Assembly (NCBI GenBank): GCA_050696935.1
Contig: JBOGYU010000001.1
Coordinates: forward strand, 1-41,042
Reading direction: 5' to 3'
From: Solirubrobacteraceae bacterium
GTDB lineage: Bacteria > Actinomycetota > Thermoleophilia > Solirubrobacterales > Solirubrobacteraceae
Length of the DNA stretch: 41,042 nt
Each line of letters starts with the position of its first letter. The stretch's first letter is position 1. The position numbers were made by a program, and so were the translations under genes. Shown piece by piece: positions 611 to 33,901 of the stretch. The notes beneath the pieces were generated by a model that saw only the letters and a list, made by a program, of their open reading frames with translations, did not search any database and was not told where the DNA came from.

Positions 611-1000
611 TCAGGAGGCGGAGTCGCCGCGCGCCGCGCCAGCCGTGGCGGGCTCTTCGGGCGACGTCTCGGCGTTGGCCTGACCGGTGGAGCGGTTGCG
701 GCTGGCGAGGAACTCGACGCGCTCGGCGATCACGTACACGCGCGAGGCGTAGCCGCCATCCTGGGTCTGGAACTCCTCGAACAGCAGCCGGCCATCGATC
801 GCGACCTCGCGGCCGGCCTTCAGGTAGTCGGCGCAGGCATGCGCCTGGCCGTCGAAGCACTTGACGTCGAAGTAGCCGTCCTTGCCCTGCTTGCCGGCGC
901 GCTTGACGGCGATCCGCAGCGTGCAGATCGCGGTGCCGCCGTCGGTCTCGAGCAGCTTCGGGTCCTTGGTCAGGTGGCCGGTGCCGGTCCAGCGGTTCAT
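611..1000 (-). CDS. ssb: single-stranded DNA-binding protein (OB fold)
   Basis: Internal ATG at 1000-998 of ORF 611..1360, preceded by GGAGG. The sequence MNRWTGTGHLTKDPKLLETDGGTAICTLRIAV...YFDVKCFDGQAHACADYLKAGREVAIDGRL is a typical SSB OB fold. The C-terminus (..ARGDSAS) lacks the canonical acidic D-D-x-P-F tip. Confidence 0.9.
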   Translation of the reverse strand: MNRWTGTGHLTKDPKLLETDGGTAICTLRIAVKRAGKQGKDGYFDVKCFDGQAHACADYLKAGREVAIDGRLLFEEFQTQDGGYASRVYVIAERVEFLASRNRSTGQANAETSPEEPATAGAARGDSAS

Positions 1001-1640
1001 CGGGTCCTCCTTCGCCCTCTGCGGGCGGGTCGTGTGGCTGTCCAGGCGGCTACCGGCGCCACGACGCGGACGGAGCGCACCCGCAGGGCGGCCGTCAGGC
1101 CGAGCCCGAGCGAAGCGAGCGGCTTGCGCTCCGTTCCGCGGGCGCCGACACTGCAGCCGCAGGCAGCCACACGCACCGCCGGCGAGTCGCGAAGATCGCA
1201 TGCACTTCCGGACCAGCTCCCAGGCCTCGCAAGTCCCGAGCTCGACCGGGCCGACGGCAAACCCGCCTAGTGCACGCGCCTGATCGCCGACGGACCCGTG
1301 CCCGGCGCCCCCGATTCGGGCCCCGACGGTCAAGTGCCTGGACGATCCGGTCGGCTCCATACGTCTCTGCCGCTAAGGAGGCGCCCGAGCAGTAGCTGGC
1401 CCCCTCACGCAAGACCACGCCGCCATAGACCGCGGATACCGCACGCCCGCGCCAGCCTTGCCGCCGCCGGATCGGCTCGCGTCGGCGCGCGAGCGGTACG
1501 AGACGCGTGAGAGAGCCGAGGTGGATCGCAACGACGCACCGGGCGGGCTGAGCGCCGACGCCCCGTCCGCTGCACGCAAGAGAGACCGACCGATCGCGTC
1601 GACGCGTCAGAGGTCGCGCACCACGACCGCACTCACGCGG

Positions 1641-1830
1641 ACCCTCCGACGACTACAGACTCCCGTCACCGCCTCCAGATCCTCGCTCCTGCCCAGCTTC
1701 CCGTGCCCGTCTTGCCTCCCGCCTTCACTCCTGACTGCTCCTGGTTCCCTACCGCATAGTCCTCTTGCTCTTCCTGCTCGCTTCACGCTTGCCGCCGCCC
1801 CGCCTCCGGCCTCCCACCATCACGCCTGGG
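1641..1830 (+). other. strongly pyrimidine-rich (C/T) strand-asymmetric tract in a ~1 kb non-coding gap
   Basis: By eye the plus strand here is almost all C and T (tcccgtcaccgcctccagatcctcgctcctgcccagcttccc...). Only low-complexity ORFs cover it. Confidence 0.5.
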
Positions 1831-1858
1831 CTGGCCTGCCCGGTGTTTGTTTGGCAGG

Positions 1859-1905
1859 TCGAGGAAGGGGGGTCCAGCGCGAAGCGGTGGACCCCCCTTC
1901 CTCGA
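1859..1905. terminator. strong GC-rich hairpin, terminator-like
   Basis: gaggaaggggggtcca (1861-1876) pairs perfectly with tggaccccccttcctc (1888-1903), and 2 flanking bp extend the stem. The loop is 11 nt and can form 3 more bp. It sits ~155 nt past the hsdR stop. No clear U-tract on either strand. Confidence 0.5.
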
Positions 1906-1953
1906 AAGCCCAGGCGTAGAGCGGAATCCGAGCCGGAGGCGGGGCGGCGGCCC

Positions 1954-2037
1954 GTTGATCTCTGAGCTTCAACAGCCAGACTTCAACACCCACAGATCAA
2001 CACCCACAGATCAACACGCGCGGGCCTGGAGATCAAC
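1954..2037. repeat. iteron-like array: four tandem 14-bp units plus one extra direct and one inverted copy of the GATCAAC core
   Basis: Units: 1967 cttcaacagccaga, 1981 cttcaacacccaca, 1995 gatcaacacccaca, 2009 gatcaacacgcgcg. Another gatcaac lies at 2031-2037 and an inverted gttgatc at 1954-1960. Confidence 0.75.
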
Positions 2038-2057
2038 GGGCAATGCCGACCGCGACC

Positions 2058-5045
2058 TCAGATGCCGGGGAGTTGCTGCCCGGGCTCGTTGAGCCGGCCG
2101 TAGACCTTTTGGGCGAGGTAGTCGCGGACGACGGAGCCGAACGCGGGGTCGTCGATCATGCGCCCGAAGAAGTCCTGGTTGGCGTCGAGGCGGTCGATGA
2201 CAAGGCCTTCGAGGACCTTGTCGAGCGCGAGCTTAAAGTTCTCCTGGGAGTTCACGCGGGCCTGGGTGGCGAGCGTTGCGTTCTGGACGCAGGTCTGCTC
2301 GATCTGGTCGACGAAGACCTTGTCGGCCTCCGTGAACTCTGTGCCGAAGCGCTCGTTGAGCGTGTCGATGATCTCCGAGAGCTTGGCGAACTGTGGGTCC
2401 TGCCCGCCGGTGCCCTCGCCGGTGAAGCCGGGGATGATCCCGCCGCCCTGAGTAAGCGACAGGTCGTGCTCGCCGATCAGCTCGGTGCGCAGGTGTGTCA
2501 GCACGACGTCGTCGGAGAGATCGAGGCCGGCGGGCTGCTCGCGCGGCAGCCGCAGCGCGAGGAAGCGGCTGTAGGTGTAGAGCCGCTCGAGTTCGGCGTC
2601 GGCGAACGGGACGATCTGCGCGAGGAACGCGTAAACACGCACGAACGCGGTCAGCGCCGCGCGGAACGCCTCGCGCGCGTCGTCGTCGGCCAGCGCCGCG
2701 TAGCGTTCGACGGCCGGGTCGAGCAGCGCATACAGCGATGCGTTGGCGCCCTCTCCGGAGCCCAGGAAGGCGGTCGTGAAGCGCGCGGCTTCCTCGCGGT
2801 CGATGACGCCGAGCGCGTCGAGGCGGGAAGCAGCGTTGTAGAGCACGTTCGGGTCGGTCGGTTCGGCGATGGTCGCCTCAAAGAACGGGGCGAATGCGTC
2901 CTGGATCTGCTGGGTGTCGTTGGCGAAGTCAAGGACGAACGTGTCGGTCTTGCCTGGGTGGATGCGGTTCAGGCGGCTGAGCGTCTGCACGGCTCTGACG
3001 CCTTCGAGCTTCTTGTCCACGTACATGGTGTGCAGCAGCGGCTGGTCAAAGCCGGTCTGGTACTTCTCGGCGACGATCAGGAGCTGGTACTCGTCGCCGG
3101 CGAACTCGGTGGGTAGCGCGGTCTCTGCGATCCCAGCGTTCATCTGTGGCTCGGTGTAGTCGACGCCGCTGTCGGTGACGGTGCCGCTGAACGCGACGAG
3201 CGTGCGCACGTCGTCGTAGTGCTTCTCGACTATGTAGGCGTCGATCGCGCGCTTGTAGCGGACGGCATGCACGCGGCTGCGGGTCACGACCATCGCCTTG
3301 GCGTGGCCGCCGATCTTGCGGCGCGTGTGGGTGCGAAAGTGCTCGACAATGACCTCGGCCTTCTGCGCGAGGTTCGTCGGATGAAGCGACACGAAGCGCG
3401 CGAGCTGCGCCGCGGCCTTGGCCTTGTCGACGTCCGGGTCCTCGGCCGCCGCCGCGGCGATCTTCCAGTACGAGCCATAGGTCGCATAGCCCCTGAGCAC
3501 GTCGAGGATGAAGCCCTCCTCGATCGCCTGCTTCATCGAATAGAGGTGCACCGGGCCGTAGGTGTCATCGGCGCGCTTGGTGCCGAACAGCTCCAGCGTG
3601 CGCGCCTTTGGCGTCGCCGTGAACGCGAAGAACGAGAGGTTGTCCTGCCGGCCACGAGCTGCGAGCGCGGCGGTCAACTCGTCCTGAGGATCGCCGGCTG
3701 CCTCGCTCGCGGCGTCCAGCGCCTCAGCCGCCTCGAGCTGCTCATCGGCGCTCGCGCCGAGCACCTGCTTGAGGTCCTTTGCCGCCTCGCCGGTCTGGCT
3801 GGAATGGGCCTCGTCGACGATCACCGCGTAGTGGCCGGCCTTCAGCTCGGTACCGGCCTTGAGCACGACCGGGAACTTCTGCAGCGTGGTGATGATCACC
3901 TGCGCGCTGCCGCCCGTCAGGGCGGCGGCGAGTTGCGCGGAGTTCTTGTCGATCTTCTCGACCACGCCGGGCTTGTGGTCGAACTGGAAGATGGTGTCCT
4001 GCAGCTGGCGGTCAAGCACGACGCGGTCCGTGATCACGACGACTTTGTCGAAGACTTTGCGGTCGTGCGCGTCGTGCACGTTTGAGAGCTGGTGCGCCGT
4101 CCACGCGATCGTGTTGGACTTCCCCGACCCCGCCGAGTGCTGGACAAGATAGGACTCCCCCGGGCCGTTCGCGCGCGCGTCACCGACGAGCCGACGAACC
4201 GCGTCCCATTGGTGATAGCGCGGGAAGATCACTGCACCGGTCGTGCCCTTGCCGGTGCCGGGCTCGACGTGGATGAAGCGATGCATCAGGTCCAGCCAAT
4301 TGTCGCGCTGCCAGGCCTCCTCCCACAGGTAGGCCGTTCGGTGGCCGTCCGGGTTGGGCGGGTTGCCGGCGCCACCGTCGGCGGTGCCCTTGTTGAACGG
4401 CAGGAAGCGTGTCGAGGCGCCCTGGAGGCGGGTGGTCATGAACACGAGCGCCGCGTCGACGGCGAAGTGCGCGACCGCGCGCTTGCCCGAGAGCATCAGA
4501 TTCTTGGGCGAGCGGTCCTCGCGGTACTGCCTCTTGGCGTGCTCGACTGTCTGGTTCGTGAGCTGATTCTTCAACTCGGCCGTCGCGACGGGCAGGCCGT
4601 TGACAAACAGCGCGAGATCGAGCTCGGCGTCGTGGCCAGGCGCGTAGCGCAGCTGCCGCGTAACCGAGCAGCGGTTGGCCGCGTAGAGCTGCTCCAGCGT
4701 CGGCGTCAGCCCATGCGCGGGGCGGAAGTACGCGAGCTCGATCTTCACGCCGAGGTCGGTGACGCCGCGGCGCAGCACGTCGATGACACCGCGGCGGTTG
4801 AGCTCGTCGTTGAGCCGCTGCTTGAACTTGCGCTGCGCCGTCGACTGATCGCCGCCGTGGCGCGCGATCAGCTTCTCCCAGGCGTTGATCTGCGTCGCGC
4901 CGATGAAGGTGAACAGCTCGACAGTGTCGAGTGCGAGGTCGCGGTCGTAGGAGGTGTTCGCGCCCTGATGCCAGCCGTGGCCGAGCAGGTATGTCTCGAT
5001 CGTGGTCTCGAGCGCCTCCTCCAGATGCGCGCCGGTCGGGCTCAT
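2058..5045 (-). CDS. hsdR: type I restriction enzyme R subunit (HsdR, SF2 helicase-nuclease)
   Basis: 995 aa. Carries LVQHSAGSGKS (Walker A), VIVDEAHSSQTG (DEAH box) and an HsdR-type N-terminal nuclease region. Its start overlaps the hsdS stop by 4 nt. Confidence 0.95.
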   Translation of the reverse strand: MSPTGAHLEEALETTIETYLLGHGWHQGANTSYDRDLALDTVELFTFIGATQINAWEKLIARHGGDQSTAQRKFKQRLNDELNRRGVIDVLRRGVTDLGVKIELAYFRPAHGLTPTLEQLYAANRCSVTRQLRYAPGHDAELDLALFVNGLPVATAELKNQLTNQTVEHAKRQYREDRSPKNLMLSGKRAVAHFAVDAALVFMTTRLQGASTRFLPFNKGTADGGAGNPPNPDGHRTAYLWEEAWQRDNWLDLMHRFIHVEPGTGKGTTGAVIFPRYHQWDAVRRLVGDARANGPGESYLVQHSAGSGKSNTIAWTAHQLSNVHDAHDRKVFDKVVVITDRVVLDRQLQDTIFQFDHKPGVVEKIDKNSAQLAAALTGGSAQVIITTLQKFPVVLKAGTELKAGHYAVIVDEAHSSQTGEAAKDLKQVLGASADEQLEAAEALDAASEAAGDPQDELTAALAARGRQDNLSFFAFTATPKARTLELFGTKRADDTYGPVHLYSMKQAIEEGFILDVLRGYATYGSYWKIAAAAAEDPDVDKAKAAAQLARFVSLHPTNLAQKAEVIVEHFRTHTRRKIGGHAKAMVVTRSRVHAVRYKRAIDAYIVEKHYDDVRTLVAFSGTVTDSGVDYTEPQMNAGIAETALPTEFAGDEYQLLIVAEKYQTGFDQPLLHTMYVDKKLEGVRAVQTLSRLNRIHPGKTDTFVLDFANDTQQIQDAFAPFFEATIAEPTDPNVLYNAASRLDALGVIDREEAARFTTAFLGSGEGANASLYALLDPAVERYAALADDDAREAFRAALTAFVRVYAFLAQIVPFADAELERLYTYSRFLALRLPREQPAGLDLSDDVVLTHLRTELIGEHDLSLTQGGGIIPGFTGEGTGGQDPQFAKLSEIIDTLNERFGTEFTEADKVFVDQIEQTCVQNATLATQARVNSQENFKLALDKVLEGLVIDRLDANQDFFGRMIDDPAFGSVVRDYLAQKVYGRLNEPGQQLPGI

Positions 5046-6271
5046 ACGGCGGCGCTCGTCGTTGTCGTGCCGGGCACCTGCAGTCTGCCGGTGACCGCGG
5101 CAGTGATGAGCGCCTGCCGGCGCTCGCGGAGGAGCGCGATCTGACGGTCGATGGCGGCGAGCGTCAGATCGATCGCCACTCGCGCCTCAAGCGCCTGATG
5201 CGCTATTAGTCGTTGCCGGCCGATCGCCGGAAGGGGAACACGCAACTCGCGCAGATCATCGCCGCGAAGCTTGACCATCGACTGGGACGAACCGCGCGCT
5301 GCCGCGGTCATCTGACTTCGTGCGTCCGGCGTCGACAAAGCGAGCTGAACGTAATCAGGATCGTGCCCCTCGCGAAGCGTCAAGCGGTAGATCAGATCTG
5401 GGAGCAGCAGTGTGGGTGCATCGGGGTCGAGTCGAGCCACGGCCGCCAGGCCCACCAGATTCGGAGTGTTCGCTCTCGTCACCAGGAGGTCGGCGTCGCG
5501 CACGGCAGGGCGGTTCGCGGCGCTTCCGTCTACGAGAAGCTTGTTCTCAATCGCCGAGAAGCCGCGGGCGCTGACCGCGCTCAGCTTGAGGACGCCAACC
5601 TCGCCATGACCCGCGGATCGATCCTCGCACTGCGGACTCGAGCCCTGCTCGATGGACGCCACCGCGCTCGCGAGTCGAACTTGAGCGCCAGCCGTCGCGA
5701 CCGCCACGGCCACCTGCGACCGATGCCGTTCGATCAGCAATACGCGCTGCCGCTCGCGGGCGGACATCATGGCGTCGATCCGCGTGGTCTCGGCGTCGAG
5801 GAGGTCTGCGATGCGTGCCTGGTCGGCTATGCCCGGACACGGGATACGAAAGGCGCGGAGCAAATCGGTGTCGAGACGCTTTGTTCCATGAGCTGCCTCA
5901 TCGGTGAGCGCGAGTATCGGGTCTTCGAACGCGAGCAGCGCATACAGCAAGTACTTCGATGAGACCCAGCGATCGGGTTCGATCGCCTTGATGTCCTGAT
6001 TGAACGCAACCGCCCGAGTGACCATCGCGACTGGCAAGCGCTTCGCCAGCGCCATCCCGCGCGTGCCAATCAGAATGCTCCCCGCCGGGACCGTCGTGGA
6101 GAACCGCTTCGCCGCGTCCTCTGTGATGGTGTCGGTCGAGCCGCTGAGCTCGGGCTTCTTTAGATCGCGCGTGCTGATCCAGGGAAAGCCGCCGCCCCAT
6201 AGGTCGTCTCGGTCCTTTGGCGGCGTTCCGCCTGATCGCCACTTACCAACATCCGCGAGGCGCGTGCTCAC
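5042..6271 (-). CDS. hsdS: type I restriction-modification specificity subunit (HsdS, two target-recognition domains)
   Basis: 409 aa lying between hsdM and hsdR with 4-nt overlaps on both sides. Bipartite layout with conserved helical spacers (..RERQRVLLIERHRSQV.. and ..IDRQIALLRERRQALITAAVTG). Confidence 0.85.
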   Translation of the reverse strand: MSTRLADVGKWRSGGTPPKDRDDLWGGGFPWISTRDLKKPELSGSTDTITEDAAKRFSTTVPAGSILIGTRGMALAKRLPVAMVTRAVAFNQDIKAIEPDRWVSSKYLLYALLAFEDPILALTDEAAHGTKRLDTDLLRAFRIPCPGIADQARIADLLDAETTRIDAMMSARERQRVLLIERHRSQVAVAVATAGAQVRLASAVASIEQGSSPQCEDRSAGHGEVGVLKLSAVSARGFSAIENKLLVDGSAANRPAVRDADLLVTRANTPNLVGLAAVARLDPDAPTLLLPDLIYRLTLREGHDPDYVQLALSTPDARSQMTAAARGSSQSMVKLRGDDLRELRVPLPAIGRQRLIAHQALEARVAIDLTLAAIDRQIALLRERRQALITAAVTGRLQVPGTTTTSAAV

Positions 6272-8196
6272 CCTCGCACCTCCGCCAGCAGCCGCAGGAT
6301 CTCTTGCTCAACCTCGTCGATCTCCGCGTCGATCTCCTCGAGCGGCCGCGGCTCGACATGTTGGTAGAAGTGCCGCGTGAGCGGAATCTCGTAGCCGACG
6401 ACGGTCTTCGCCTCGTCGACCCAAGCATCGGGCGCGTGGGGCAGCACCTCCCGCGCGATGTAGTCCTCGACGTTCTCGACCAGCGGGATGCTCTCCTGGT
6501 CGCGCAGTTCGGGGTCGGGCTCGGGCCGTCCCTTGCTGTCGACGACCGCCTCGCCGTCGGGATCGCGCGGCAGCAACGCAGAGAGCACGAGCTTGCGCTT
6601 CGCGGCCGGCAGCTTCGGCAGGAGCCTGGTGATCCGGGCCGTCGCGGCGGCCATCGAAGCTTCCGCGGAAACGTCGAGGTGCGCCGTCGCGGCCTTCACC
6701 GCCGCCACGACGTCCTCGCCGAGCGTGCCGTCCAGCGCATCGAGCCGCACGCCCGCGCCCTCGACATCGACCCGCACCCGCAGCGGCCGCTCGACTGTCA
6801 CTCGCCGGAACCCGAACGCCTCGTTGTCGAAAACTTTGCCCGTCTGGGTCTCCTCGAAGTCCGCGTACCACCGCGTGATCTCGGCGATCGCCGCCTCGGG
6901 CATCCGCTTGCGCTTCTCGCCAAGCGACTTGGGCATCTTCTCCCACTGCTCGCGAGCGTCGATCAGCTGCACGCGCCCGCGCCGCACGTCGGCCTTCGCG
7001 TTGGTGACGAGCCAGATGTAGGTGCTGATTCCGGTGTTGTAGAAGAGCTGGTCGGGCAGCGCCACGACGGCGTCGAGCCAGTCGTTCTCGATGATCCAGC
7101 GGCGGATCTCGCTCTCCCCCGAGCCCGCGGCGCCGGTGAACAGCGGCGAACCGTTGAAGACGATCGCGATCCGCGATCCGCCTTCCTCGACGGGCTTCAT
7201 CTTGCTGATCATGTGCTGCAAGAACAGGAAGCTGCCGTCGTTGATCCGCGGCAGCCCCGCGCCGAACCGGCCGGCGTGCCCGAGCGTGTCACGCTCGTCC
7301 TTGACCTGCGCCTCGATCTTCTTCCACTCCACCCCGAACGGCGGGTTGGACAGCATGTAGTCGAAGCGACGGTCGTGCTGGTCGTTTGAAAGTGTGTTGC
7401 CGAACGCGATGTTCTGGGCGTGCTGGCCCTTGAGCATCATGTCCGAGCGGCAGATCGCGTAGGACTCGGCGTTCAGCTCCTGGCCGAAGACCTCGAGTTG
7501 CCCGTTGGGGTTGAGGTCGCGCAGGTACTCCTCGGCGATGCTCAGCATCCCGCCTGTCCCGCATGCCGGGTCATACACGGTCTTGACGATCCCCTTGGTG
7601 CGCAGCTCCGTCCCGTCACCAGCGAACAGCAGGTCGACCATCAGCCGGATGACCTCGCGAGGCGTGAAGTGCTCGCCCGCCGTCTCGTTGGACTGCTCAC
7701 TGAAACGCCGGATCAGCTCCTCGAAGACGTAACCCATCTGCAGGTTGCTGACGGCGTCGGGGTGCAGATCAATGTCGGCGAACTTGCCCACGACGAGGTA
7801 CAGCAGGTCGGCGTCGTCCAGGCGCGTGATCTGCTCGTCGAAGTTGAACTTCTGCAGCGTCTCCGCCGCACCCGGGGAGAAAGCGGCGACGTACTCGCGC
7901 AGCGAGCCGGCGATCTGCTGCGGGTCGTCGAGCAGGCGGCGGAAGTCGAGCTTCGAGGTGTTGTAAAAGCCGAGGTCACCGGCGGCCCGGCGCAGGATCG
8001 GCTCGGGGTTCGGGCGATGGCCGTGTCGCTCGACGGCTTCGAGCACTGCGGGCTTGGTCGCCTCCAACACGCAGTCCAGTCGCCGCAAGACGGTCAGCGG
8101 CAGGATCACGCGGCCGTACTCCGACTGCTTGTAGTCCCCGCGCAACAGGTCGGCGACCGACCAGATGAACGCGACGAGCTGGCCGTGGCCCTCCAT
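6268..8196 (-). CDS. hsdM: type I restriction-modification N6-adenine DNA methyltransferase subunit (HsdM)
   Basis: Carries the NPPFG catalytic motif (LSNPPFGVEWK), the AdoMet motif (VYDPACGTGGML) and an HsdM N-terminal domain (LVAFIWSVADLLRGDYK). The ORF track starts at TTG 8247. I prefer ATG 8196 (MEGHGQLVAF). Confidence 0.93.
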   Translation of the reverse strand: MEGHGQLVAFIWSVADLLRGDYKQSEYGRVILPLTVLRRLDCVLEATKPAVLEAVERHGHRPNPEPILRRAAGDLGFYNTSKLDFRRLLDDPQQIAGSLREYVAAFSPGAAETLQKFNFDEQITRLDDADLLYLVVGKFADIDLHPDAVSNLQMGYVFEELIRRFSEQSNETAGEHFTPREVIRLMVDLLFAGDGTELRTKGIVKTVYDPACGTGGMLSIAEEYLRDLNPNGQLEVFGQELNAESYAICRSDMMLKGQHAQNIAFGNTLSNDQHDRRFDYMLSNPPFGVEWKKIEAQVKDERDTLGHAGRFGAGLPRINDGSFLFLQHMISKMKPVEEGGSRIAIVFNGSPLFTGAAGSGESEIRRWIIENDWLDAVVALPDQLFYNTGISTYIWLVTNAKADVRRGRVQLIDAREQWEKMPKSLGEKRKRMPEAAIAEITRWYADFEETQTGKVFDNEAFGFRRVTVERPLRVRVDVEGAGVRLDALDGTLGEDVVAAVKAATAHLDVSAEASMAAATARITRLLPKLPAAKRKLVLSALLPRDPDGEAVVDSKGRPEPDPELRDQESIPLVENVEDYIAREVLPHAPDAWVDEAKTVVGYEIPLTRHFYQHVEPRPLEEIDAEIDEVEQEILRLLAEVRG

Positions 8197-8318
8197 CAAC
8201 GCGAAGGAGTCGTGATCGATACGCGGGTTCCGACAGGCATCGCCCAAACAACGCTATAGCTCGCCCGCTACACCCGTCGCAACACGAGCGCGCCGCGTCG
8301 ATCCGAAGGACGGCCCGC

Positions 8319-9074
8319 TCAGGTCAACGCGAAGGAGGCCCGGTCGACTGCGACATCGGCGACGCGCGGCTCAGGCAGCTGGTCCCACTGGCGGCCATCG
8401 AGCTCGCGGCCGCGCGCCTTCGGTCGTGGGCCACCCCACTGCTTGAAGAAGAAGGCGACGTCATCGTCGACGCAGCGATCGCGGAGATCGCGGACCCACG
8501 CGGGGTCGATGCGGCGATGCCGCGGCCCGGACTCGCCGCCCGCTATCAGCCAGTCGATATTGGTGAGGTCCAGGCTCTCGAGTGGACCGAGCAGAGGCTC
8601 GGCACTGATGAAGCGGACGGCCGCCGGTACCTCGCGAACGGCATCGGCCCGGTGGACGAAGCGACGGTTCTCGATGCTGACGCCGATCCAGACATTGGGA
8701 GCCCAATCGAGCCATTCGGCGAGATCGGCGAGGCGGTCCTGGCGTTTGGTGAGGATCTGGAACGTGTGCCAGTGCGCCGCTCGCATCGTCGCAAACACGC
8801 TTTCGATGAAGTCCGTTGGGATCGCCTCGTGGAACAGGTCGGACATGGAGTTCACGAAGATCGTCTTCGGCTTGCGCCAACGCAGCGGAACGTCCAGACG
8901 CTCGTGCCAGAGCTTCAGGTCGAAGCCTTGCTCGTAGGGATGGCCGGCGACGCCGCGCCAGCGCTCGGCGAAGGTCTTGGCGTAGCAGTGAGCGCATCCG
9001 GGGCTGACCTGGGAGCAGCCCGTCACGGGGTTCCACGTGGCCTCGGTCCACTCGATCGCGCTTGTTTGTGCCAC
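8319..9074 (-). CDS. DUF5131 / phage Gp37-Gp68 family protein (three-Cys motif)
   Basis: IEWTEATWNPVTGCSQVSPGCAHCYA...IFVNSMSDLFHE...FQILTKR...RFISAEPLLGPL...DWLIAGGESGP...FFFKQWGG matches my recollection of the family consensus almost block for block. Confidence 0.85.
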   Translation of the reverse strand: MAQTSAIEWTEATWNPVTGCSQVSPGCAHCYAKTFAERWRGVAGHPYEQGFDLKLWHERLDVPLRWRKPKTIFVNSMSDLFHEAIPTDFIESVFATMRAAHWHTFQILTKRQDRLADLAEWLDWAPNVWIGVSIENRRFVHRADAVREVPAAVRFISAEPLLGPLESLDLTNIDWLIAGGESGPRHRRIDPAWVRDLRDRCVDDDVAFFFKQWGGPRPKARGRELDGRQWDQLPEPRVADVAVDRASFALT

Positions 9075-9132
9075 GGATGCCCTTTCGGCGCCGAAGATCT
9101 CAGCCCTGCTGCGTAATCGAACAAATGTTCGC

Positions 9133-10272
9133 CTAGGGCTCGGACGACTCGTCGAACCGCATTGTGATGCCCTTGCCCTCCTTGAACAGCCGGACGCCGG
9201 GCGGCCGTGTCACGACCAGGTCGCCCGTCTTCTCAGCGGGGGCAAGAGTCTTGGTCTTGAGATGGGTGTCGAGGAAGCGCGACCGCGCCGTGAGCTCCAT
9301 TGCGGCCTCGACCGTGAAGGGTTCGCCTCCGAAGCGCGCACGAAGCGCGTCCAGCAGCGGGCTAGTGTTGGGTTGTGCACCCTCCGGCTCGCCGAAGTCG
9401 AGGCGTTGCTGGCCCGCCGCGACTGGCTTTGGTGCCACGTACCCCTGGCCATTCACGGGGTCGACGCTCCAGAAGCCTTCCTTGATGCTCGACCAGCCCT
9501 TAGGGTGGCCGGAGCCTCCGACGATGAAGTAGGCGTTGCTCGGATCCGGCTTGAGGCGGAACGAGCCGACCCATTCCAGCGCGGCGTCCCGTAGCTGCTT
9601 CTCAAACAGCGAGAGCAGCTGCGAGGGTCGCTGAGGGCCGTCGAGCACGTCGCGCCAGGTGCTCGTGCCGAAGAAACGATCGAGCGCGGTCTCCTGGCCC
9701 GGTCGGTTCTTGAAGCGGTTGACGAACGAGAGCGGCAGGAAGATGAGCGTGTCGCTCTTGGGCTGCTGCACGAGGTCCTTGGTGAGCTCCATCGGCGCGT
9801 GTGAGTAGCCGAACGGGTCCAAGAACAAGAACAGAGCGGACGGCTCGGACACCGCCTGCGGCACGTGCTCCTCGTACCGCCCGCACGTGACCGTCCACTG
9901 CACGCGATCACTCCAGCCGGGCCCGCGGTCGCGCATCGCGTCCTCGAACTCTTGGAGCTTGGAGGCCAGGATGTCCGCCCGCGCCTCGTTCTTCTCGACG
10001 AAGTGCAGGTCATAGCGCACCGGCGACCACCGCTCGTGCAGGTTCGGGTTGGTGCACAGCGCGCGCATCAGGATCAGCGGCGATCCGGAGCCACCGCCGG
10101 CGTAGACGCCGGGACCCGCGAAGCCGTCGTAGATCCGCACGAGGCCGCCACCCGGGCGGCTCGCGAAGTACCCCGAGTGGATGCTGATCCACTTGTTGAA
10201 GAACGCGCGCAGCAGCTCGTGCTTCGCCTTCGTGTGTTCGTCACGCGTCCAGAGCACCGCTTCCTTCGCCAT
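9133..10272 (-). CDS. tcmP: three-Cys-motif partner protein TcmP-like
   Basis: 379 aa directly upstream of the DUF5131 gene and co-oriented with it. The N-terminus (W..DEHTKAKHELLRAFFNKW...YDGFAGPG) resembles the TcmP family, which is defined by pairing with Gp37/Gp68 proteins. Called from memory, not from a search. Confidence 0.65.
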   Translation of the reverse strand: MAKEAVLWTRDEHTKAKHELLRAFFNKWISIHSGYFASRPGGGLVRIYDGFAGPGVYAGGGSGSPLILMRALCTNPNLHERWSPVRYDLHFVEKNEARADILASKLQEFEDAMRDRGPGWSDRVQWTVTCGRYEEHVPQAVSEPSALFLFLDPFGYSHAPMELTKDLVQQPKSDTLIFLPLSFVNRFKNRPGQETALDRFFGTSTWRDVLDGPQRPSQLLSLFEKQLRDAALEWVGSFRLKPDPSNAYFIVGGSGHPKGWSSIKEGFWSVDPVNGQGYVAPKPVAAGQQRLDFGEPEGAQPNTSPLLDALRARFGGEPFTVEAAMELTARSRFLDTHLKTKTLAPAEKTGDLVVTRPPGVRLFKEGKGITMRFDESSEP

Positions 10273-10314
10273 GGCTCACAAGGATTCCAGCGACACGGGA
10301 CGTGGACGAGCGGC

Positions 10315-11370
10315 TCACGCAGCACGCCGTTCGTTCTCGGCCTTGATTGGGACGTCCGGAGCCCGTGCGGGGGCGATCCGAACGCGGCGGGTTTGCTCGG
10401 ATCTCGAGCGGTGTCCCTTCGGGAACGTCGACAGGCGCCGAGCCTCGAGTCGCCCGCTGTGCGCGTCGACCTCCGAGGCGAACAGCATCCGTTGACGTCC
10501 GATGTGCTCGTAGCGCTCCGGCCCCACGTCGGGGTGCCAGCGGTGGCCAGTGAGCTCGCGGTCGGCGGCGGCGATGAATTGGTCTCGGTGGTCGTCGTCC
10601 TGGCAGACGAAGAGGACGAACGGGGGTGCGCCTCGGTCGGCGAGGTGGGTGCGCTGCCACCACCAGTTCAGGAAGGCGTCGTAGCGGCGGAACTTCTCGT
10701 AGTTTCTGTCGAGCCGGCGGGTGCGGTCGTACTCGACGAGAAGCAGACGCGCTGGTGAAGCCGAGTCGTCACCGGCGACCTCGAGAACCGCATCGGGACA
10801 CACGGGGCGTGCTCGCGGGTCGCTCAGGCCTTCGGCTGACCAGTCGTCGTCGAAGCGCTCCCCTCGGCGCAAGCCCGGCGGCGGCTCGATCGTGGTCTCT
10901 CCCTCCCACTCGAGGAGGCCGTCACCGACGGCCCGCCGGTAGGCAAGCACCCATGCGTTGAGCTGGAGCTCGTGCAGGACGTGGCCGAAGTCGAAGATCA
11001 GGCGCTGTCGATGGCGCCGGTTCAACGGGATGAGATCGGCGTGCTGCAGCAGCTGATGACCGGCTGCGCCGAGGCAGTACGTCCAGGGATACGACCCGGT
11101 TCCAGGTCGGGAGACAGGCCGGAAACGATCGATGTATCCGGCGCGGAAGAGCTTGAGCAGGCGGCGGTCAGCGGCCTGGATGGACGCAGTCGGCCACCAG
11201 AGCTCGCGCAGTTGCGGAGCGCTGATGAACTTGTAGCGCGAGACGTCGTGGACGATCGCGACGTCACGTGGCTGAACTGCGCAGGACACGATCGAGCCAC
11301 GATCGCTCCGTTCGATCGCCGCGCCGTCATAGCGGTGGACCTCGGCGTAGCTGATCGGCAGATCAGACAC
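10315..11370 (-). CDS. replication-relaxation (Replic_Relax) family protein, putative DNA-processing protein of the transfer system
   Basis: GTG at 11370 overlaps the coupling-protein stop by 8 nt. PRDVAIVHDVSRYKFISAPQLRELWW...ADRRLLKLFRAGYIDRFRP...WTYCLGAAGHQLL is the typical winged-helix N-terminus of this family. The rest of ORF 10315..11919 is an out-of-gene extension. Confidence 0.75.
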   Translation of the reverse strand: MSDLPISYAEVHRYDGAAIERSDRGSIVSCAVQPRDVAIVHDVSRYKFISAPQLRELWWPTASIQAADRRLLKLFRAGYIDRFRPVSRPGTGSYPWTYCLGAAGHQLLQHADLIPLNRRHRQRLIFDFGHVLHELQLNAWVLAYRRAVGDGLLEWEGETTIEPPPGLRRGERFDDDWSAEGLSDPRARPVCPDAVLEVAGDDSASPARLLLVEYDRTRRLDRNYEKFRRYDAFLNWWWQRTHLADRGAPPFVLFVCQDDDHRDQFIAAADRELTGHRWHPDVGPERYEHIGRQRMLFASEVDAHSGRLEARRLSTFPKGHRSRSEQTRRVRIAPARAPDVPIKAENERRAA

Positions 11371-14020
11371 TATTGCCCTCGAGTCGTTCGAAGTCGTCCG
11401 GGAAGCGCTGCTGGCCGTTGGGGTCTTCGGGTTGCTGGTCTTGGTCGCCTGACTTGGGCCCCGCGGGCGTCGTCTTGTCCTGTGGCTGCACCCTCGAGTC
11501 CCGCGGCGGGGGCTCGTCGTGAGCGAGCAGGTCAGGCAATTTGTCCGGGTGATGCCCGCCACGTGCGCGCTGTGCGTCGCGGTGGTGGCCGGCGCGATCG
11601 GCCTCGTACAGCGGCTCCATCGGAAGGGTGTGCCCCACGAAGCCGGATCGTGGGCTGCCGCTGGCGATCCACAGGTTGATCGCCTGGTGGACCGGGAGCC
11701 GGAGGATGTCGTCGGGCGAGAACCGCAGTCGCTCCTGCTCGTCTTGCTGGATCGAGATGCGATCGGAGTAGACCTCCATCGCCAGGCCGGCGAGAGAGCG
11801 TGCGTCCTCCATCTCGCGCATCCGGAAGATCGAGATCGACTGCAGCAACGACCGCACGCCCGAGCGGATGACCTCGTCGCGGATCTGCGCGGAGTACTGC
11901 CACGCGAACACGGGCTCAAGGCCCGCGGAACGGCCTTCGGCGAGCATCGTGGCGACCGACGGCGTCAGCACGTTGTGGGCCTCGTCGATGAGCAGCGCCA
12001 CGCGTCGGCGCTCAGGCTCGGGAACCTCCTGTTGTGCCTGGAGTGCGCGGTGGAGGAGTTGAAGCAACAGGTGGGTGACGAGGATCGCGTTGTCCTCGCC
12101 CACGGCTGCCTTCGCGCCGGCGACGATGAGGATCTCGCCACTCTGCAAGACGCCCTCAAGGTCCAGCGGGACGGGATGGCGCAGCAGGGTGTCGATCTCG
12201 CGCGTTGAGATGAGTCTCTCGATCTTGTTGCGGGGAGGGTTGAGCGCCTGCGCCGCGTAGCCGCGGTCGGCGATCAGCATCGGGAACTCGCGCTGCCAGT
12301 AGCCCTTGGCGAACTGGGCGTCGCTGCGATGCCGCAGCGCCTCGACGACCTTGGCGCGGTACTTGGAGTTGCCGAGTCCGAGCATGCGGTAGACGTGCCA
12401 GAGCGTCGGCTCGGGCTCGATCATGCAGACGGCGTAGATCGCCTGGCGCAGGAACGAGTCGGATGCCGCTTGGATCGCGCCGGGCGGGTTGGCCTCGATC
12501 AGCGCTTGGAGCAGAACCGCGGCGCGCGTGCCCGGCGTGGCGTCGATCGCAAGCGGGTTGATGCCGATCTCCGGCTCGCCGAGGTCGAGGTAGCGCACCG
12601 TCCGGCCGATCGGGGCGAGTCCGAGGCAGAGCTCCGCGAGCGGGCCCTTGGGATCGATCAGGATCACCGCGCGGCCTGGGTCACGGGTGTCGTTGACGAA
12701 GTGCCGGGCCAGCACGGAGCTCTTACCGCCGCCCTGGCCGCCTATGAGTGCGTGCCCGAACTTTCGATCCTCAGAAGCGATCGACACAGAGCCGTGCTCA
12801 TCCTGCATGAGCACCCTGTCGGCGTCGCGGTCGATACCGGCCGGCGCGCTCGCGCGGCGCACCGCAGAGCGCAGGAGGCCGCCGTGCTTGACGCGCCCTC
12901 GCGGAAGCTGCCAGAGCGTCGCGAGCTCGGACGTCGAGAGCACACCGGTCCGCAGGCCGGGAATCGGGTTCGGCATCGCGTTTGCAATGCGCGCCTCGTA
13001 AACGCCGCGACGCAGTCGCATTTCGCGACGCGCCAGCTCGTTCTCCGAGCGCAGCTGGCTGAAGAGACCAGCGACGCGGCGGACGGACGCGCGGTCCTCG
13101 CCGGAGACGCGCAGGTCGAAGAGATAGAGCGTCCGGTGCTGGAGCTCGAGCGCGCCTTTGAGCTCCTTGGCTTCGACGACGGAGTCGATGCCGAGTTCGC
13201 CCGAGTCGCGGTGGTCGGCGTGCTGGAGCGCGCGTTCCCGGCGCTTGAGCAGTCGGCGGGCTCGGCGATGCACGAACCCTGCTGCTGGAGTGAGTACGAG
13301 CTGCACCGACAGATTGCCGTCGCCCTTGTCCATCAGAGCCACGAGCGATTCGGAGAACGCGTGCTCGTAGTTGCGGGTGGTTTGGATCGAGAGGACGAAG
13401 GAGGCGCGTTTCTTGAGTCGGATGAGGCAGTCCGACCACTCGGGCTGGCCGTCAACGCCTCGTAGCTCGACGTCGGGGTAGAGGTCTTCCAGTGGTCCGC
13501 GGATCGCCGGCTCGAGGGAGCGGGGCGCGGCAATGGCGAACCGGATCGACGCGTCAGGCAGGCGGTGGACCTCAAGAGCGAGGTGCTCGGGGCCCCGCCG
13601 GAGTCGTTCGTACCAGCGCACGCTGATGGCGCCAGCGATGCCTTCGAAGGCCTCCTGCACCCGGTAGGGGTTGGCCAGGTCGTCGCGCCCCAGGCGCAGC
13701 TCCCACCGGACCGTTCGTCGCGCCCGGCGGCGGCGATAATGGACGCGGCTCGCGATCCCGGCGATGCTGAGTACCAGCGCGGTCACCGCCACCGGCCCCA
13801 GCACGGCGCCGGCAGTAGTGAGCACATCCGTGACATCCCGTGCGGGTCCAGCTTCAGCGCCTGGCTTCGATATGGGCGGCCAGGTGACCTCGTTTCCCTC
13901 CTGCAGCTCGCGCCAGGTCCGCGTCAGGTCGTGCGTCGCGACGTACGCCCAGACGAGCAGCCCGGCGGGAAACCAGATGAGCGACACCAGCAAGAGACGC
14001 ACGCGCAGCGGGGCGCTCAC
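11363..14020 (-). CDS. type IV coupling protein (VirD4/TraD/TraG-like ATPase) with N-terminal TM segments
   Basis: 885 aa with N-terminal hydrophobic helices, Walker A (GGQGGGKSSV) and Walker B (ALLIDEAHNV). GTGA overlap with the upstream gene. Confidence 0.85.
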   Translation of the reverse strand: MSAPLRVRLLLVSLIWFPAGLLVWAYVATHDLTRTWRELQEGNEVTWPPISKPGAEAGPARDVTDVLTTAGAVLGPVAVTALVLSIAGIASRVHYRRRRARRTVRWELRLGRDDLANPYRVQEAFEGIAGAISVRWYERLRRGPEHLALEVHRLPDASIRFAIAAPRSLEPAIRGPLEDLYPDVELRGVDGQPEWSDCLIRLKKRASFVLSIQTTRNYEHAFSESLVALMDKGDGNLSVQLVLTPAAGFVHRRARRLLKRRERALQHADHRDSGELGIDSVVEAKELKGALELQHRTLYLFDLRVSGEDRASVRRVAGLFSQLRSENELARREMRLRRGVYEARIANAMPNPIPGLRTGVLSTSELATLWQLPRGRVKHGGLLRSAVRRASAPAGIDRDADRVLMQDEHGSVSIASEDRKFGHALIGGQGGGKSSVLARHFVNDTRDPGRAVILIDPKGPLAELCLGLAPIGRTVRYLDLGEPEIGINPLAIDATPGTRAAVLLQALIEANPPGAIQAASDSFLRQAIYAVCMIEPEPTLWHVYRMLGLGNSKYRAKVVEALRHRSDAQFAKGYWQREFPMLIADRGYAAQALNPPRNKIERLISTREIDTLLRHPVPLDLEGVLQSGEILIVAGAKAAVGEDNAILVTHLLLQLLHRALQAQQEVPEPERRRVALLIDEAHNVLTPSVATMLAEGRSAGLEPVFAWQYSAQIRDEVIRSGVRSLLQSISIFRMREMEDARSLAGLAMEVYSDRISIQQDEQERLRFSPDDILRLPVHQAINLWIASGSPRSGFVGHTLPMEPLYEADRAGHHRDAQRARGGHHPDKLPDLLAHDEPPPRDSRVQPQDKTTPAGPKSGDQDQQPEDPNGQQRFPDDFERLEGNSV

Positions 14021-14568
14021 CCGCCACCTCCGAGCGCAACGTACGTCTCGAGCGTCGCGGCGATGATGAGCATCAGCGCGCAGAGCCCCGCGACGATGGC
14101 GAGGTCAGCCAGGCCGAGCGGCCGTCGGCTTGTAGACATGTATGCGCCGCCGGCGAGCGACAGCGCGGCGAACTCGATGGGTAGATGAAGTGCGATGGCG
14201 GCGGCCACGCGCCCGCCGTAGGCGCCAAGCGCCAGACCGACGAGGCTCGCGTTGGCGGCGAGGACCGTGGCGAGCACGACGTCAGCCAACAGCCGGGCAC
14301 GCTGCGCCAGTCGCGGAACGACCAAGGCACAGAGAAGCGCGGCTGCGGCAAGCCTTGCGTTGTGCAGGGCGATCTGGAGTGCCGCGGCGGGCGTTTCATC
14401 CACGCCCGCGAAGTCGAAGCGCAGGGCGCGCCGGACGTCGTCCGCCAGGCCCGTGAGTGCGACCGAGGCGGCACCGCACACGATCACCAGGGTTGCCGCG
14501 CCGGCACAGGCGAGTGCACCGGCTGCGAGGTCGCGGGCGCCTGGCGAGCGGGCCATGCCCCGACTCAC
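14017..14568 (-). CDS. integral membrane protein (SpoIIM/DUF95-like)
   Basis: 183 aa, 4-5 hydrophobic helices, with LHLPIEFAALSLAGGAYM resembling the SpoIIM-type HG.pE motif. GTGA overlaps at both ends. Confidence 0.5.
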   Translation of the reverse strand: MSRGMARSPGARDLAAGALACAGAATLVIVCGAASVALTGLADDVRRALRFDFAGVDETPAAALQIALHNARLAAAALLCALVVPRLAQRARLLADVVLATVLAANASLVGLALGAYGGRVAAAIALHLPIEFAALSLAGGAYMSTSRRPLGLADLAIVAGLCALMLIIAATLETYVALGGGG

Positions 14569-15356
14569 CGGGTCCTCCTGAGGACGTGGGCGATGCCTGT
14601 GAGTGTGCGGCCAAGGTCAGCCGAGGGGTCCGCGAGATCTCCGCGTGAGACAGCGTCGGAATGCGGTGCGAGCACAAGTCGCTCGCAGCGGTGTGTAGCG
14701 AGTCGGCGCAGCGTGCGCACGCTCGCGCTCGGGCGTCGCTCCCCGGCGAGGGCGATGAGGACTTCGTACCAGCGTCCCGGTGTGGGAAGCGCGTCGCTGG
14801 CGGCCAGCAGCCGGGCGCGCGCGACGGCGGGCCTGCTGGCCGTGACCGTCCAGAGGATGTGCGTGGCCGCGTCCAGAACCGGTCCGGCCGTGGCCCAAGC
14901 CGATCCAAGGTCGACGATGACGAGGCCGTGAGCGGCCCGCGCTTCGCGAATGAGCGCGCTGAGGTCCTCGGGGTCGGGGTCGGCGCTGCGCGCCGGGGCG
15001 GAGGCGACGAGTCTGAGCCCAGGCTCGATTTCGACGAACACCTCGGCGGGCGCCTGACCGTCCGCCACGAGCTGAGCGAGCCCGGACAGGCTCAGCGGCG
15101 TGGCCTGGCCGGCGAGCACGGCGAGACCGCCTCGGCGCGAGTCGGACTCGGTGAGCAGCACTGGCGCCTGGCTCTCGCGTGCCGCTTGGCGGGCGAGGCA
15201 TAACGCGAGTGTCGAGGCGCCCGATCCGCCGACCAGTCCGCAGACGGCGACCAGCGGCCCGCCGAGCTCGTTGAAGGCCAGTCCACACGAAGCCGCGCGC
15301 GCACGCCGCGCGCGGATCGGCAACGAGATGCGAGCGGCTACGGCTGCGGCTCCCAT
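14565..15356 (-). CDS. ParA/MinD/CpaE-like protein with a degenerate P-loop
   Basis: ATG at 15356 (MGAAAVAARISL). VAVCGLVGGSGASTLALCLA occupies the position of the deviant Walker A KGGxGK[ST]T, but both lysines are missing. LVIVDLG looks like a Walker B. Confidence 0.55.
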   Translation of the reverse strand: MGAAAVAARISLPIRARRARAASCGLAFNELGGPLVAVCGLVGGSGASTLALCLARQAARESQAPVLLTESDSRRGGLAVLAGQATPLSLSGLAQLVADGQAPAEVFVEIEPGLRLVASAPARSADPDPEDLSALIREARAAHGLVIVDLGSAWATAGPVLDAATHILWTVTASRPAVARARLLAASDALPTPGRWYEVLIALAGERRPSASVRTLRRLATHRCERLVLAPHSDAVSRGDLADPSADLGRTLTGIAHVLRRTR

Positions 15357-15919
15357 CGCCTGACTGCCCAGCCGTCGTCGGTGCGCACGACCGTCGCGAG
15401 ATAGACCCGGTGCCGCGTCCCTTCCGAGTCGGCCCGACCGTGGGCAAGCCGCTCCTCCGAAGCTACGCACACGGCACCCCGCGTGACAGCACCGGGCTTG
15501 ACGTCGATCGCGACGACCCGCCCGCGCGTCCCGAGGCGGTCGCGACGCAGCGCCCGGTCCTGTGCGCGCAACTGGGCCTCCGCCGCAAGCTGACGAGCGA
15601 GCGCACCGGTCGCCAGGCTCGCGAGGCGCCGCTGTTGGCGCTCGATTGTGCGCCAGTTCCAGTTGCTCCACTGCGAGCAGAACGCGCCCAGGGCAGCGCG
15701 TGGCGTGCGCTGCGCGTCGCTATTCACTGCAGGCGCGGTGTCGCGCTCTCGCGCGAGTGGCGGACGCTCGTCACCGTACGCCCCCTCGTCGCGAGCCGCG
15801 GCGGCAGGCCGGCGCGTGTCGTCCCGGCGACGCTCGTCATCCTGCCTGTAGGGGTCCTGGCAGCCCGCGACGAACGCGACCAGCACCGGCACGACGATCA
15901 AGACGCGGCGCGTCATCAT
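15338..15919 (-). CDS. lipoprotein of the transfer operon
   Basis: ATGATG at 15919 overlaps the hydrolase stop. MMTRRVLIVVPVLVAFVAGC gives a signal peptide plus lipobox. The upstream part of ORF 15338..16651 is not coding. Confidence 0.7.
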   Translation of the reverse strand: MMTRRVLIVVPVLVAFVAGCQDPYRQDDERRRDDTRRPAAAARDEGAYGDERPPLARERDTAPAVNSDAQRTPRAALGAFCSQWSNWNWRTIERQQRRLASLATGALARQLAAEAQLRAQDRALRRDRLGTRGRVVAIDVKPGAVTRGAVCVASEERLAHGRADSEGTRHRVYLATVVRTDDGWAVRRWEPQP

Positions 15920-30252: not shown

Positions 30253-30417
30253 CTCGGCTGGCGTCGACCCGCTCGATGAGGGCTGCCGCACTGGCTGCTG
30301 CGTCTCGCGCAAAGCGACAGTCGCGCTATAGCCCACCGGACCGCTCCCTGGAGTTGACCCGGTTTCGTGGACACCTGAGCGCTTGGGCCGCTGGGCCCGG
30401 GCAGGAAGGATGTGTTC

Positions 30418-31646: not shown

Positions 31647-31684
31647 ACCAGCCCCAACGTGTCCACCGGAACGGGTCAAGTCCA

Positions 31685-32028: not shown

Positions 32029-32044
32029 AGCAGCCGCGGAGCCT

Positions 32045-32826: not shown

Positions 32827-32830
<4 letters not shown>
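32045..32830 (-). CDS. ABC-2 type transporter permease
   Basis: 261 aa with six hydrophobic helices. 4-nt overlap with the upstream ATPase gene. Confidence 0.8.
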
Positions 32831-33765
<935 letters not shown>

Positions 33766-33901
33766 GCCTGCAGACTCGTGGCCGGCCGGGTTTGCAACCA
33801 CGGTCCGCGGGCTACGCTCGCCGAGCCCGGCGGCGGTGGCAGACAACGACTTTGGTAGGGGGTCGTCGCCGTGGCGCTCGCCTAGCCTTGACCCTCGAGC
33901 G

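Follow-up and report, generated by a model that had tools for sequence, protein, structure and literature searches.

We analysed a 41,042-nt stretch of contig JBOGYU010000001.1 of a Solirubrobacteraceae bacterium (hereafter the window, meaning the whole of this stretch), in which a tcmP gene and a DUF5131 (Gp37/Gp68) gene stand upstream of the type I restriction-modification (R-M) genes hsdM, hsdS, and hsdR. In our estimate the chances are about even that this pair is an autonomous S-adenosylmethionine (SAM)-dependent cassette that modifies nucleic acids in genetic conflicts and not an accessory of the type I system, which would make it a likely anti-phage or anti-plasmid defence candidate of the PDC-M30 type. 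A first-pass annotation, made from the DNA letters and their translations, had placed five genes (tcmP-like, DUF5131, hsdM, hsdS, and hsdR) on one strand at 2058-10272, had called the R-M operon complete, and had suggested that the pair acts in modification, self-protection or restriction, possibly supplementing the type I system. The layout was confirmed on the minus strand with the same open reading frame (ORF) coordinates (Table 1), and hsdM, hsdS, and hsdR are all intact and co-oriented. That the pair acts in nucleic-acid modification or in genetic conflict is plausible; the suggested link to the type I system found no support, as the restriction genes form a swapped cassette and an HsdM-like neighbour is missing from over 90% of pairs.

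The evidence that carries this reading comes from the closest related element, locus L035, whose TcmP and DUF5131 proteins are 83% and 90% identical to those of the window. Both elements share an array of genes for the type IV secretion system (T4SS) coupling protein (T4CP), a relaxase, TcmP, and DUF5131, with identical gaps of 42 bp between the relaxase gene and tcmP and 58 bp between tcmP and the DUF5131 gene. In blastp comparisons the backbone proteins are 76-90% identical, the relaxase-like protein matching a 351-aa protein of L035 at 77% and the T4CP its counterpart at 76%. At the DNA level (blastn), homology covers 8363-15390 (75.5%) and 1757-2038 (82%); it ends at 8363, 44 bp ahead of the DUF5131 stop codon, and restarts at 2038, past hsdR. 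In L035 the slot is filled by a GmrSD-type gene together with another type I system; compared by blastp, the HsdM and HsdR of this system are 34% and 25% identical to those of the window, and its HsdS gives no match. Because L035 has unrelated restriction genes in the slot while the backbone is kept, hsdMSR is a swapped cargo cassette, and since one conjugative backbone keeps the pair beside two unrelated restriction cassettes, we argue that the pair works on its own. In these related Solirubrobacterales conjugative elements, the pair closes a conserved same-strand array, downstream of which the cargo slot has taken different restriction systems, and the slot after DUF5131 reads as a hotspot for defence cargo.

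The spacing of the genes agrees with this division. The hsdM/hsdS and hsdS/hsdR junctions are 4-bp overlaps, whereas the DUF5131 gene is separated from hsdM by 71-122 bp, and with the gaps given above the pair is joined less tightly than the hsdMSR genes are to one another. The tcmP/DUF5131 spacer contains a 12-nt palindrome, TTCGGCGCCGAA, at 9084-9095. The same-strand array extends upstream of tcmP through the Replic_Relax relaxase-like gene and the T4CP gene. No att-like or insertion sequence (IS) ends were seen at the cassette junctions, where the sole repeat is an imperfect 24-nt direct repeat (8196-8219/8324-8347, matching at 20 of 24 positions with 14 in one exact run). Its copies lie in the 5' end of hsdM and the 3' end of the DUF5131 gene, at the left cassette junction, and both encode SFAL; it may be a recombination scar or a chance match. 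Between hsdR and ssb lies a hairpin with arms of 22 nt (1859-1880/1884-1905), flanked on both sides by the copies of a perfect 20-nt inverted repeat (1791-1810/1932-1951). This nested inverted repeat at 1791-1951 could be an origin of transfer (oriT), a single-strand initiation site or a terminator, marking the right edge of the slot.

The restriction genes themselves encode complete sets of domains. HsdM carries the Pfam domains HsdM_N and N6_Mtase and is matched over its full length by the PADLOC model MTase_I PDLC03029 (897 bits); HsdS carries Methylase_S, and the PADLOC Specificity_I models span its residues 7-399. HsdR carries HSDR_N, SWI2_SNF2, ResIII, and a T1R_D3-like domain, and its translation shows a PD-(D/E)xK-like stretch, DLALFVNGLPVATAELK, a Walker A motif GSGKS, and a DEAH box. 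The scores of TIGR00497 and of TIGR00348 (188.7 bits on HsdR) fall under their cut-offs, which marks the Hsd proteins of the window as divergent members.

We then estimated how often the pair neighbours R-M genes elsewhere. Pattern scans for TcmP, with clade-specific patterns, gave 28 species-representative genome loci and 24 metagenome loci. A Pfam scan at 21 loci covered 195 neighbouring ORFs of 200 aa or more that lie no further than 7 kb away, and a wider survey, using a five-member HsdM panel, added metagenome contigs, nine plasmid contexts, and one phage, for about 50 contexts outside the window. Throughout these ∼50 contexts, the TcmP and DUF5131 genes stand side by side in every case where the contig extends far enough, and in any relative orientation, in Actinomycetota, Thermodesulfobacteriota, Rhodothermales, Planctomycetota, actinomycete plasmids, and Gordonia phages, even in distant pairs whose TcmP is ∼25% and DUF5131 ∼50% identical; the adjacency is in effect obligate. 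R-M genes are far less constant. N6_Mtase/HsdM_N domains occurred twice among the 195 ORFs of the 21 loci, window-like Hsd genes were found only at L020 and L015 among the 28 genome loci, and an HsdM-like neighbour was seen in 4 of the ∼50 contexts. In the nine plasmid contexts and the phage context there was no annotated R-M gene within 6-7 kb. The adjacency to R-M genes exceeds a random-position null (binomial, p0 = 0.5%: P ∼0.005 for 2/21 loci and P ∼5e-5 for 4/∼50 contexts), but it is indistinguishable from the 5-10% rate taken for cargo of mobile elements and defence islands (P = 0.14-0.58).

The TcmP family call was borne out by a hidden Markov model (HMM) search, in which TIGR04474 scored 126.6 bits against a cut-off of 53, with residues 12-269 aligned to profile positions 1-261 of 263. 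TcmP had no match in Pfam at E<=0.001, and searches of PDB sequences with the single protein and with the family profile gave no real homologue. TcmP had been described as defined only by its pairing, a view that is now outdated, since the protein has a class I SAM-methyltransferase fold, SAM and DPFG motifs that are conserved, and a winged helix-turn-helix (wHTH) at its C-terminus. The AlphaFold2 (AF2) model, with a predicted local distance difference test (pLDDT) score of 82.5, had 51 matches at E<=0.001 in a Foldseek search of the PDB. Class I methyltransferases, Trm1, CmoA, Rv2258c, METTL16, and TrmM among them, make up nearly all of the top 50 listed, with a few GRAS-domain proteins as exceptions, at modest TM-scores of 0.3-0.5, and a viral structure library gave the same picture. 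On the strength of this model, TcmP is assigned to the class I SAM-methyltransferase (Rossmann-like seven-strand) fold.

The conserved residues of TcmP fall where such a fold would place them. The motifs are YDGFAGPG (47-55), E93 after strand 2, and DPFG (152-155) after strand 4; in 49 TcmP sequences of ∼30% identity, G53, D152, and G155 are invariant and D49, F51, P54, G55, E93, P153, and F154 are at least 90% conserved. K17 and H18 of the N-terminal helix are invariant in the same alignment. The order of these motifs is the layout of exocyclic-amine methyltransferases. DPFG is the motif of Trm1, the tRNA m2,2G26 methyltransferase, and RsmD-like or N6-adenine methyltransferases carry (D/N)PP(F/Y). 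Trm1 (3axs, 2dul, and 2ytz) shares the Rossmann fold with TcmP and is among the best TM-score (TMq) values. TcmP resembles the exocyclic-amine methyltransferases in its DGFAGPG motif I-like stretch, the acidic E93, and DPFG; it differs from them in having no detectable sequence homology to solved structures or Pfam methyltransferase families, and in its own additions, the N-terminal helix with K17/H18 and the C-terminal wHTH. Of 10 diverse TcmPs, 4 pass the threshold of the Pfam model GMT-wHTH; in the TcmP of the window the match is weak (13.4 bits, residues 287-359). The family is large, its members in the representative library forming 3,941 clusters when grouped at 50% identity, and no TcmP-DUF5131 fusion occurs in the top 150 of these 3,941 representatives. 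The predicted fold, the family-wide SAM-binding and DPFG motifs, and the C-terminal winged helix are new here.

The DUF5131 call was equally firm: PF07505 scored 324.7 bits against a gathering threshold of 28.9, with residues 5-234 on profile positions 2-243 of 243. The N-terminal Cys cluster pointed out in the first-pass annotation is present (GCSQVSPGCAHCYA, residues 19-32); the three Cys were rightly seen, and their reading needs an update, as they follow the radical-SAM motif in its CX6CX2C variant. In 20 diverse DUF5131 homologues, from Actinomycetota to Burkholderia phages, C20-X6-C27-X2-C30, Y31, C201, and GGESG do not vary. In RadicalSAM.org, DUF5131 is Megacluster-5-2 with the motif CX6CX2C, near the spore photoproduct lyase (5-3) and MJ0683-like (5-1) groups. 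DUF5131 is placed in this CX6CX2C radical-SAM subgroup, an assignment that is new for this pair. The only sequence link from DUF5131 to radical-SAM proteins is its homology to NCBIfam TIGR04471, ‘radical SAM mobile pair protein A’ (E = 1e-19, 71 bits, residues 15-212). Since 71 bits is far under the equivalog cut-off of 355, DUF5131 is not a member of that family, which is also a paired radical-SAM gene of mobile elements but has a second radical-SAM protein, not TcmP, as its partner. Searches of PDB sequences with the single protein and the family profile gave no radical-SAM chain and no real homologue. A word-limited homologue search returned at least 8,000 DUF5131 candidates.

In the Gordonia phage Bakery (L037, 1921-4475), gene 64 is a DUF5131 of the long form, and its first bases are shared with the end of gene 63. 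The latter codes for a HaeIII/HhaI-like C5-cytosine DNA methyltransferase; its product, annotated as a ‘DNA methylase’, was considered as a relative of TcmP and rejected (hhalign probability 3.6%). In phage TChen, the DUF5131 gene follows a gene for an ATP-binding protein and precedes an HNH gene. In the Halopiger xanaduensis plasmid pHALXA02 (L031, 3329-7119), TcmP lies beside two genes annotated as ‘radical SAM protein’ and DUF5131 was not detected, so TcmP may partner other radical-SAM enzymes.

Both genes have been catalogued before. Payne et al. 2024 (bioRxiv 10.1101/2024.01.29.577857) listed 145 candidates from genes embedded in type I R-M, BREX, and DISARM systems, counting non-embedded homologues also; among them, PDC-M30 and PDC-M41 are two-gene cassettes that share the component B family FAM_00989. 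The adjacent genes of the window match the component models of both in PADLOC (PDC-M30A 9e-30, M30B 2e-101, M41B 9e-108, and M41A 3.5e-5), and PDC-M30 fits better than PDC-M41 because M41A reaches only 3.5e-5. The pair is therefore already catalogued as a phage-defence candidate, of which the window is a further member, and its association with R-M is already on record, since both candidates came from embedding in such systems. The window differs from the discovery setting in that the pair lies upstream of hsdM, outside the hsdM-hsdR interval, whereas at L020 it is embedded. The two candidates were catalogued without a mechanism, and the fold and motif assignments made here are absent from the main text of that paper. 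We found no functional study of the TcmP or DUF5131 families (also searched as Gp37/Gp68, COG4422, and GMT-wHTH) in the literature.

The genes around the pair are of diverse kinds and linked to genetic conflict. At L020 (Thermodesulfobacteriota, 5177-14890), the pair is embedded between a half-length hsdS and hsdR of a type I operon; hsdM lies 3.5 kb from the pair at L015, and an N6_Mtase gene is directly upstream at L041. At L005 (6-11930), the DISARM genes DrmA, DrmB, and DrmC, three further ORFs, and the pair make one block of low GC content at third codon positions (GC3 ∼0.6-0.75 vs. 0.87-0.97 in the flanking genes) that stops at DUF5131. Other loci place the pair beside IetS (L028), ABC-3C (L040), NERD and YhcG (L043), a TCAD9 system (L047), and GmrSD-like genes (L035 and L067); Hna is near the pair in S. 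meliloti, and CBASS and LmuB (Lamassu) matches occur among the neighbours. In the Gordonia phage Easley, the start of tcmP lies 4 bp behind the immunity repressor gene and close to the integrase gene, and its place right behind the repressor gene implies that it is expressed in the lysogen.

Further observations concern the surroundings of the pair. At L020, four embedded items lie between hsdM and hsdR, namely an NYN-like gene, a Fic gene, the half-length hsdS, and the TcmP/DUF5131 pair. In several contexts from Solirubrobacterales, a DUF3644 (PF12358) gene recurs beside the pair (Table 1), often accompanied by an FRG-domain gene; it may be a third partner or part of a linked island. On the Streptomyces linear plasmids L032, L033, and L057, tcmP and DUF5131 are convergent, with their 3' ends close or overlapping; beside them lie a large hypothetical gene and a gene of the DciA family, which may be the replication module of the plasmid.

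In the mechanism we propose, TcmP would bind SAM in its class I Rossmann fold and present a DPFG motif of the exocyclic-amine methyltransferase kind, and its C-terminal winged helix would direct it to nucleic acid. DUF5131 would hold a [4Fe-4S] cluster on C20, C27, and C30 and cleave SAM to a 5'-deoxyadenosyl radical, which would act on the substrate of TcmP, so that both enzymes together would modify DNA (RNA less likely). DNA is the more likely substrate because of the ∼170 phage genomes in which DUF5131 lies in DNA-metabolism regions, the overlap with a C5-methyltransferase gene in Bakery, and the DNA lyase that is its nearest neighbour among the radical-SAM groups. The cassette would serve genetic conflict, most probably anti-phage or anti-plasmid defence, and defence is favoured over self-protection because of the defence-island, embedded (L020), and lysogen-expressed (Easley) contexts. 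A more specific version, which we put forward as speculation and regard as doubtful, is that TcmP targets and N-alkylates a DNA base that the radical enzyme then elaborates, giving a new radical-SAM-dependent DNA mark for self/non-self distinction or restriction escape.

By description, such a cassette can be likened to Dnd/Ssp phosphorothioation, Dpd 7-deazaguanine modification, and the prokaryotic viperins, which are portable sets on mobile elements or in defence islands, act on nucleic acids or nucleotides, and include cases in which the modification module occurs without a restriction partner. Unlike these, to which no protein homology was found (nor was any tested for), the pair has only two genes and no cysteine desulfurase, transglycosylase or nucleotide kinase, and it has a predicted macromolecule-binding wHTH instead of a small-molecule context.

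Several points weigh against reading the pair as a radical-SAM defence cassette. The Cys triad of DUF5131 matches that of Megacluster-5-2 exactly, but Pfam Radical_SAM (PF04055) has no match to the protein at E<=0.001, the only Pfam matches at this threshold being DUF5131 itself and a weak GP88. The AF2 model of DUF5131, from an alignment of 27 close homologues, is poor (pLDDT 63); it has six alternating beta-alpha units and retrieved nothing with Foldseek at E<0.01, and although LipA, LIAS, and DesII top its Foldseek probability ranking, they stand amid generic TIM barrels and are not significant. The cassette lacks a recognisable effector (nuclease, NADase, pore former or the like), and the PDC candidates are stated to be untested (Payne et al. 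2024, bioRxiv 10.1101/2024.01.29.577857). The neighbour counts stand on ∼50 contexts with partly home-made gene calls. The pair and hsdM may also share a transcript: a scan of 1800-10600 found no promoter-like sites and no more terminator-like sites than in shuffled sequence, in scans poorly suited to high-GC Actinomycetota, and because neither kind of site was found between them, co-transcription with hsdM is conceivable.

Another reading, which we consider unlikely but a serious contender, is that the same chemistry serves the mobile element, the pair being co-expressed with the transfer genes and placing a protective mark on the element DNA against the restriction of a new host, so that its role would be counter-defence or establishment and not defence. 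This reading is kept alive by the plasmid contexts and by the conserved place of the pair behind the relaxase gene. The T4CP-relaxase-TcmP-DUF5131 array is maintained with identical short gaps in the window and L035, ssb and the large nested inverted repeat follow the cargo slot as in plasmid leading regions, ArdC lies near the pair at L042, and on actinomycete plasmids the pair adjoins the DciA or ParAB genes for replication and partition. The post-relaxase position, ArdC, and the plasmid replication neighbours fit an element-serving function equally well as they fit defence. Furthermore, DUF5131 alone is found in early/DNA-metabolism regions of ∼170 phage genomes, with the one overlap with a C5 DNA methyltransferase gene already described, and this early lytic position suggests counter-defence use. 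Nevertheless, many pairs are chromosomal, in defence islands or an R-M operon (L005, L020, L028, and L040), which is unexpected for counter-defence; the Easley arrangement implies expression in the lysogen; and a GmrSD-type modification-dependent nuclease beside the pair (L035 and L067) would be risky next to a hypermodifying enzyme.

An improbable reading is that the pair has no function in conflict and is passively carried, acting in spore photoproduct lyase-like radical-SAM DNA repair or in housekeeping RNA modification. DUF5131 does cluster with spore photoproduct lyase in Megacluster-5 of RadicalSAM.org, ordinary metabolic genes neighbour the pair at L036 and L051, and RmuC, RadC, SOS-response peptidase, and LexA-like genes are among its neighbours. 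The distribution of the pair is patchy and linked to mobile elements, it occurs in prophage immunity regions and defence islands, and a repair lyase has no obvious need of a methyltransferase-like partner, all of which argue against it.

That the pair is an accessory of the adjacent type I system, supplying a second DNA mark or protecting self DNA, is in our opinion very improbable, and this claim should be dropped. It draws on the co-oriented pair near hsdM in the window, on the embedding at L020, on the N6_Mtase and hsdM genes at L041 and L015, and on the excess over the random-position null. The pair is, however, retained in L035 with an unrelated R-M block in the same slot; some 46 of the 50 other contexts have no HsdM-like gene; the partner systems vary by locus among type I, DISARM, IetAS, ABC-3C, and GmrSD; and hsdMSR is complete and translationally coupled by itself. 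Least probable of all is a PrrC-like guard kept inactive by the restriction complex and released by phage anti-restriction to damage, e.g., tRNA or rRNA, for which one can point to the L020 operon with its Fic and NYN-like genes, to the classic embedded gene prrC (cited in Payne et al. 2024, bioRxiv 10.1101/2024.01.29.577857), whose arrangement the L020 pair parallels in lying between hsdS and hsdR, and to the tRNA/RNA methyltransferases Trm1, METTL16, and TrmM among the best TMq matches of TcmP, but PrrC/RloC anticodon nucleases are another enzyme class, the pair has no ABC ATPase or nuclease domain, more than 90% of pairs are independent of R-M, and the pair is kept while the R-M type changes.

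The conjugation genes confirm the setting on a mobile element, with T4SS, T4CP, and relaxase genes present; beyond the T4CP gene, further upstream, lie genes for an M23 peptidase, a VirB4-like ATPase, and TrbL. Because these genes stand upstream and ssb beyond hsdR, the locus is cargo or backbone of a conjugative element. Of the suggested place between conjugation and replication modules, the conjugation side stands, and on the other side only ssb was identified, whose true start is probably near 1000 because the SSB domain begins at ORF residue 121. The closest homologues of the locus are from Solirubrobacterales.

Elsewhere in the window, the plus strand at 23966-25716 encodes a 365-aa DnaJ-domain protein and, after it, a zinc-ribbon protein of 218 aa, between the T4SS genes and a plus-strand gene set at 26145-30252, in which the gene for a 906-aa SIR2_2 and NACHT-like NTPase protein is followed by an overlapping 464-aa ORF without a Pfam match. 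The latter set, located beyond the T4SS genes, probably makes up an independent defence locus of the STAND/SIR2 type. An IS3-family transposase (orfA/orfB, rve domain) lies at 30379-31646, genes for an ABC ATPase and a histidine kinase are downstream of it within 30379-35100, and beyond these is a sigma-factor gene (36376-36948). The end of the mobile element is probably close to 31 kb.

Table 1. Coordinates of the features discussed, in the window unless a locus is named.
Feature	Position	Strand	Remarks
ssb	611..1360	-	PF00436 E = 5.5e-18, residues 121-218
Conserved right flank of cargo slot	1757..2038	.	82% to L035; nested inverted repeats
Variable cargo slot	2039..8362	.	no DNA homology to L035 (blastn)
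hsdR	2058..5045	-	995 aa; restriction/translocase subunit
hsdS	5042..6271	-	409 aa; two target-recognition halves
hsdM	6268..8247	-	659 aa; TTG start at 8247, alternative ATG at 8196
DUF5131 / Gp37-Gp68 gene	8319..9074	-	251 aa; putative radical-SAM superfamily; PADLOC PDC-M41B/M30B
tcmP/DUF5131 spacer	9075..9132	.	58 bp; same length in L035
tcmP	9133..10272	-	379 aa; class I SAM-methyltransferase-like, C-terminal winged helix (predicted); PADLOC PDC-M30A
Replic_Relax relaxase-like gene	10315..11370	-	PF13814 E = 6e-16; mechanical ORF reaches 11919; conserved backbone
T4CP gene	11363..14020	-	TrwB_AAD_bind and TraG-D_C; conserved backbone
DUF3644 gene	L042 2333-3382
DUF3644 gene	L049 8805-9854		= L001/L050
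DUF3644 gene	L060 80-1126
DUF3644 gene	L051 13092-14057

TcmP and DUF5131 are large families that are spread over plasmids, integrative elements, prophages, and defence islands. The window and L035 together offer a natural experiment, with one backbone and one pair beside two restriction cassettes, and C20, C27, and C30 of DUF5131 and D152 and E93 of TcmP are the candidate catalytic residues. If the pair is indeed a radical-SAM-based system of defence or DNA marking, it would represent a new chemistry for prokaryotic immunity. If the more specific idea of a radical-SAM-dependent DNA mark were true, the mark would be a portable epigenetic one, carried by plasmids, integrative elements, and phages, and DUF5131 would be the first radical-SAM enzyme known to hypermodify DNA in situ.

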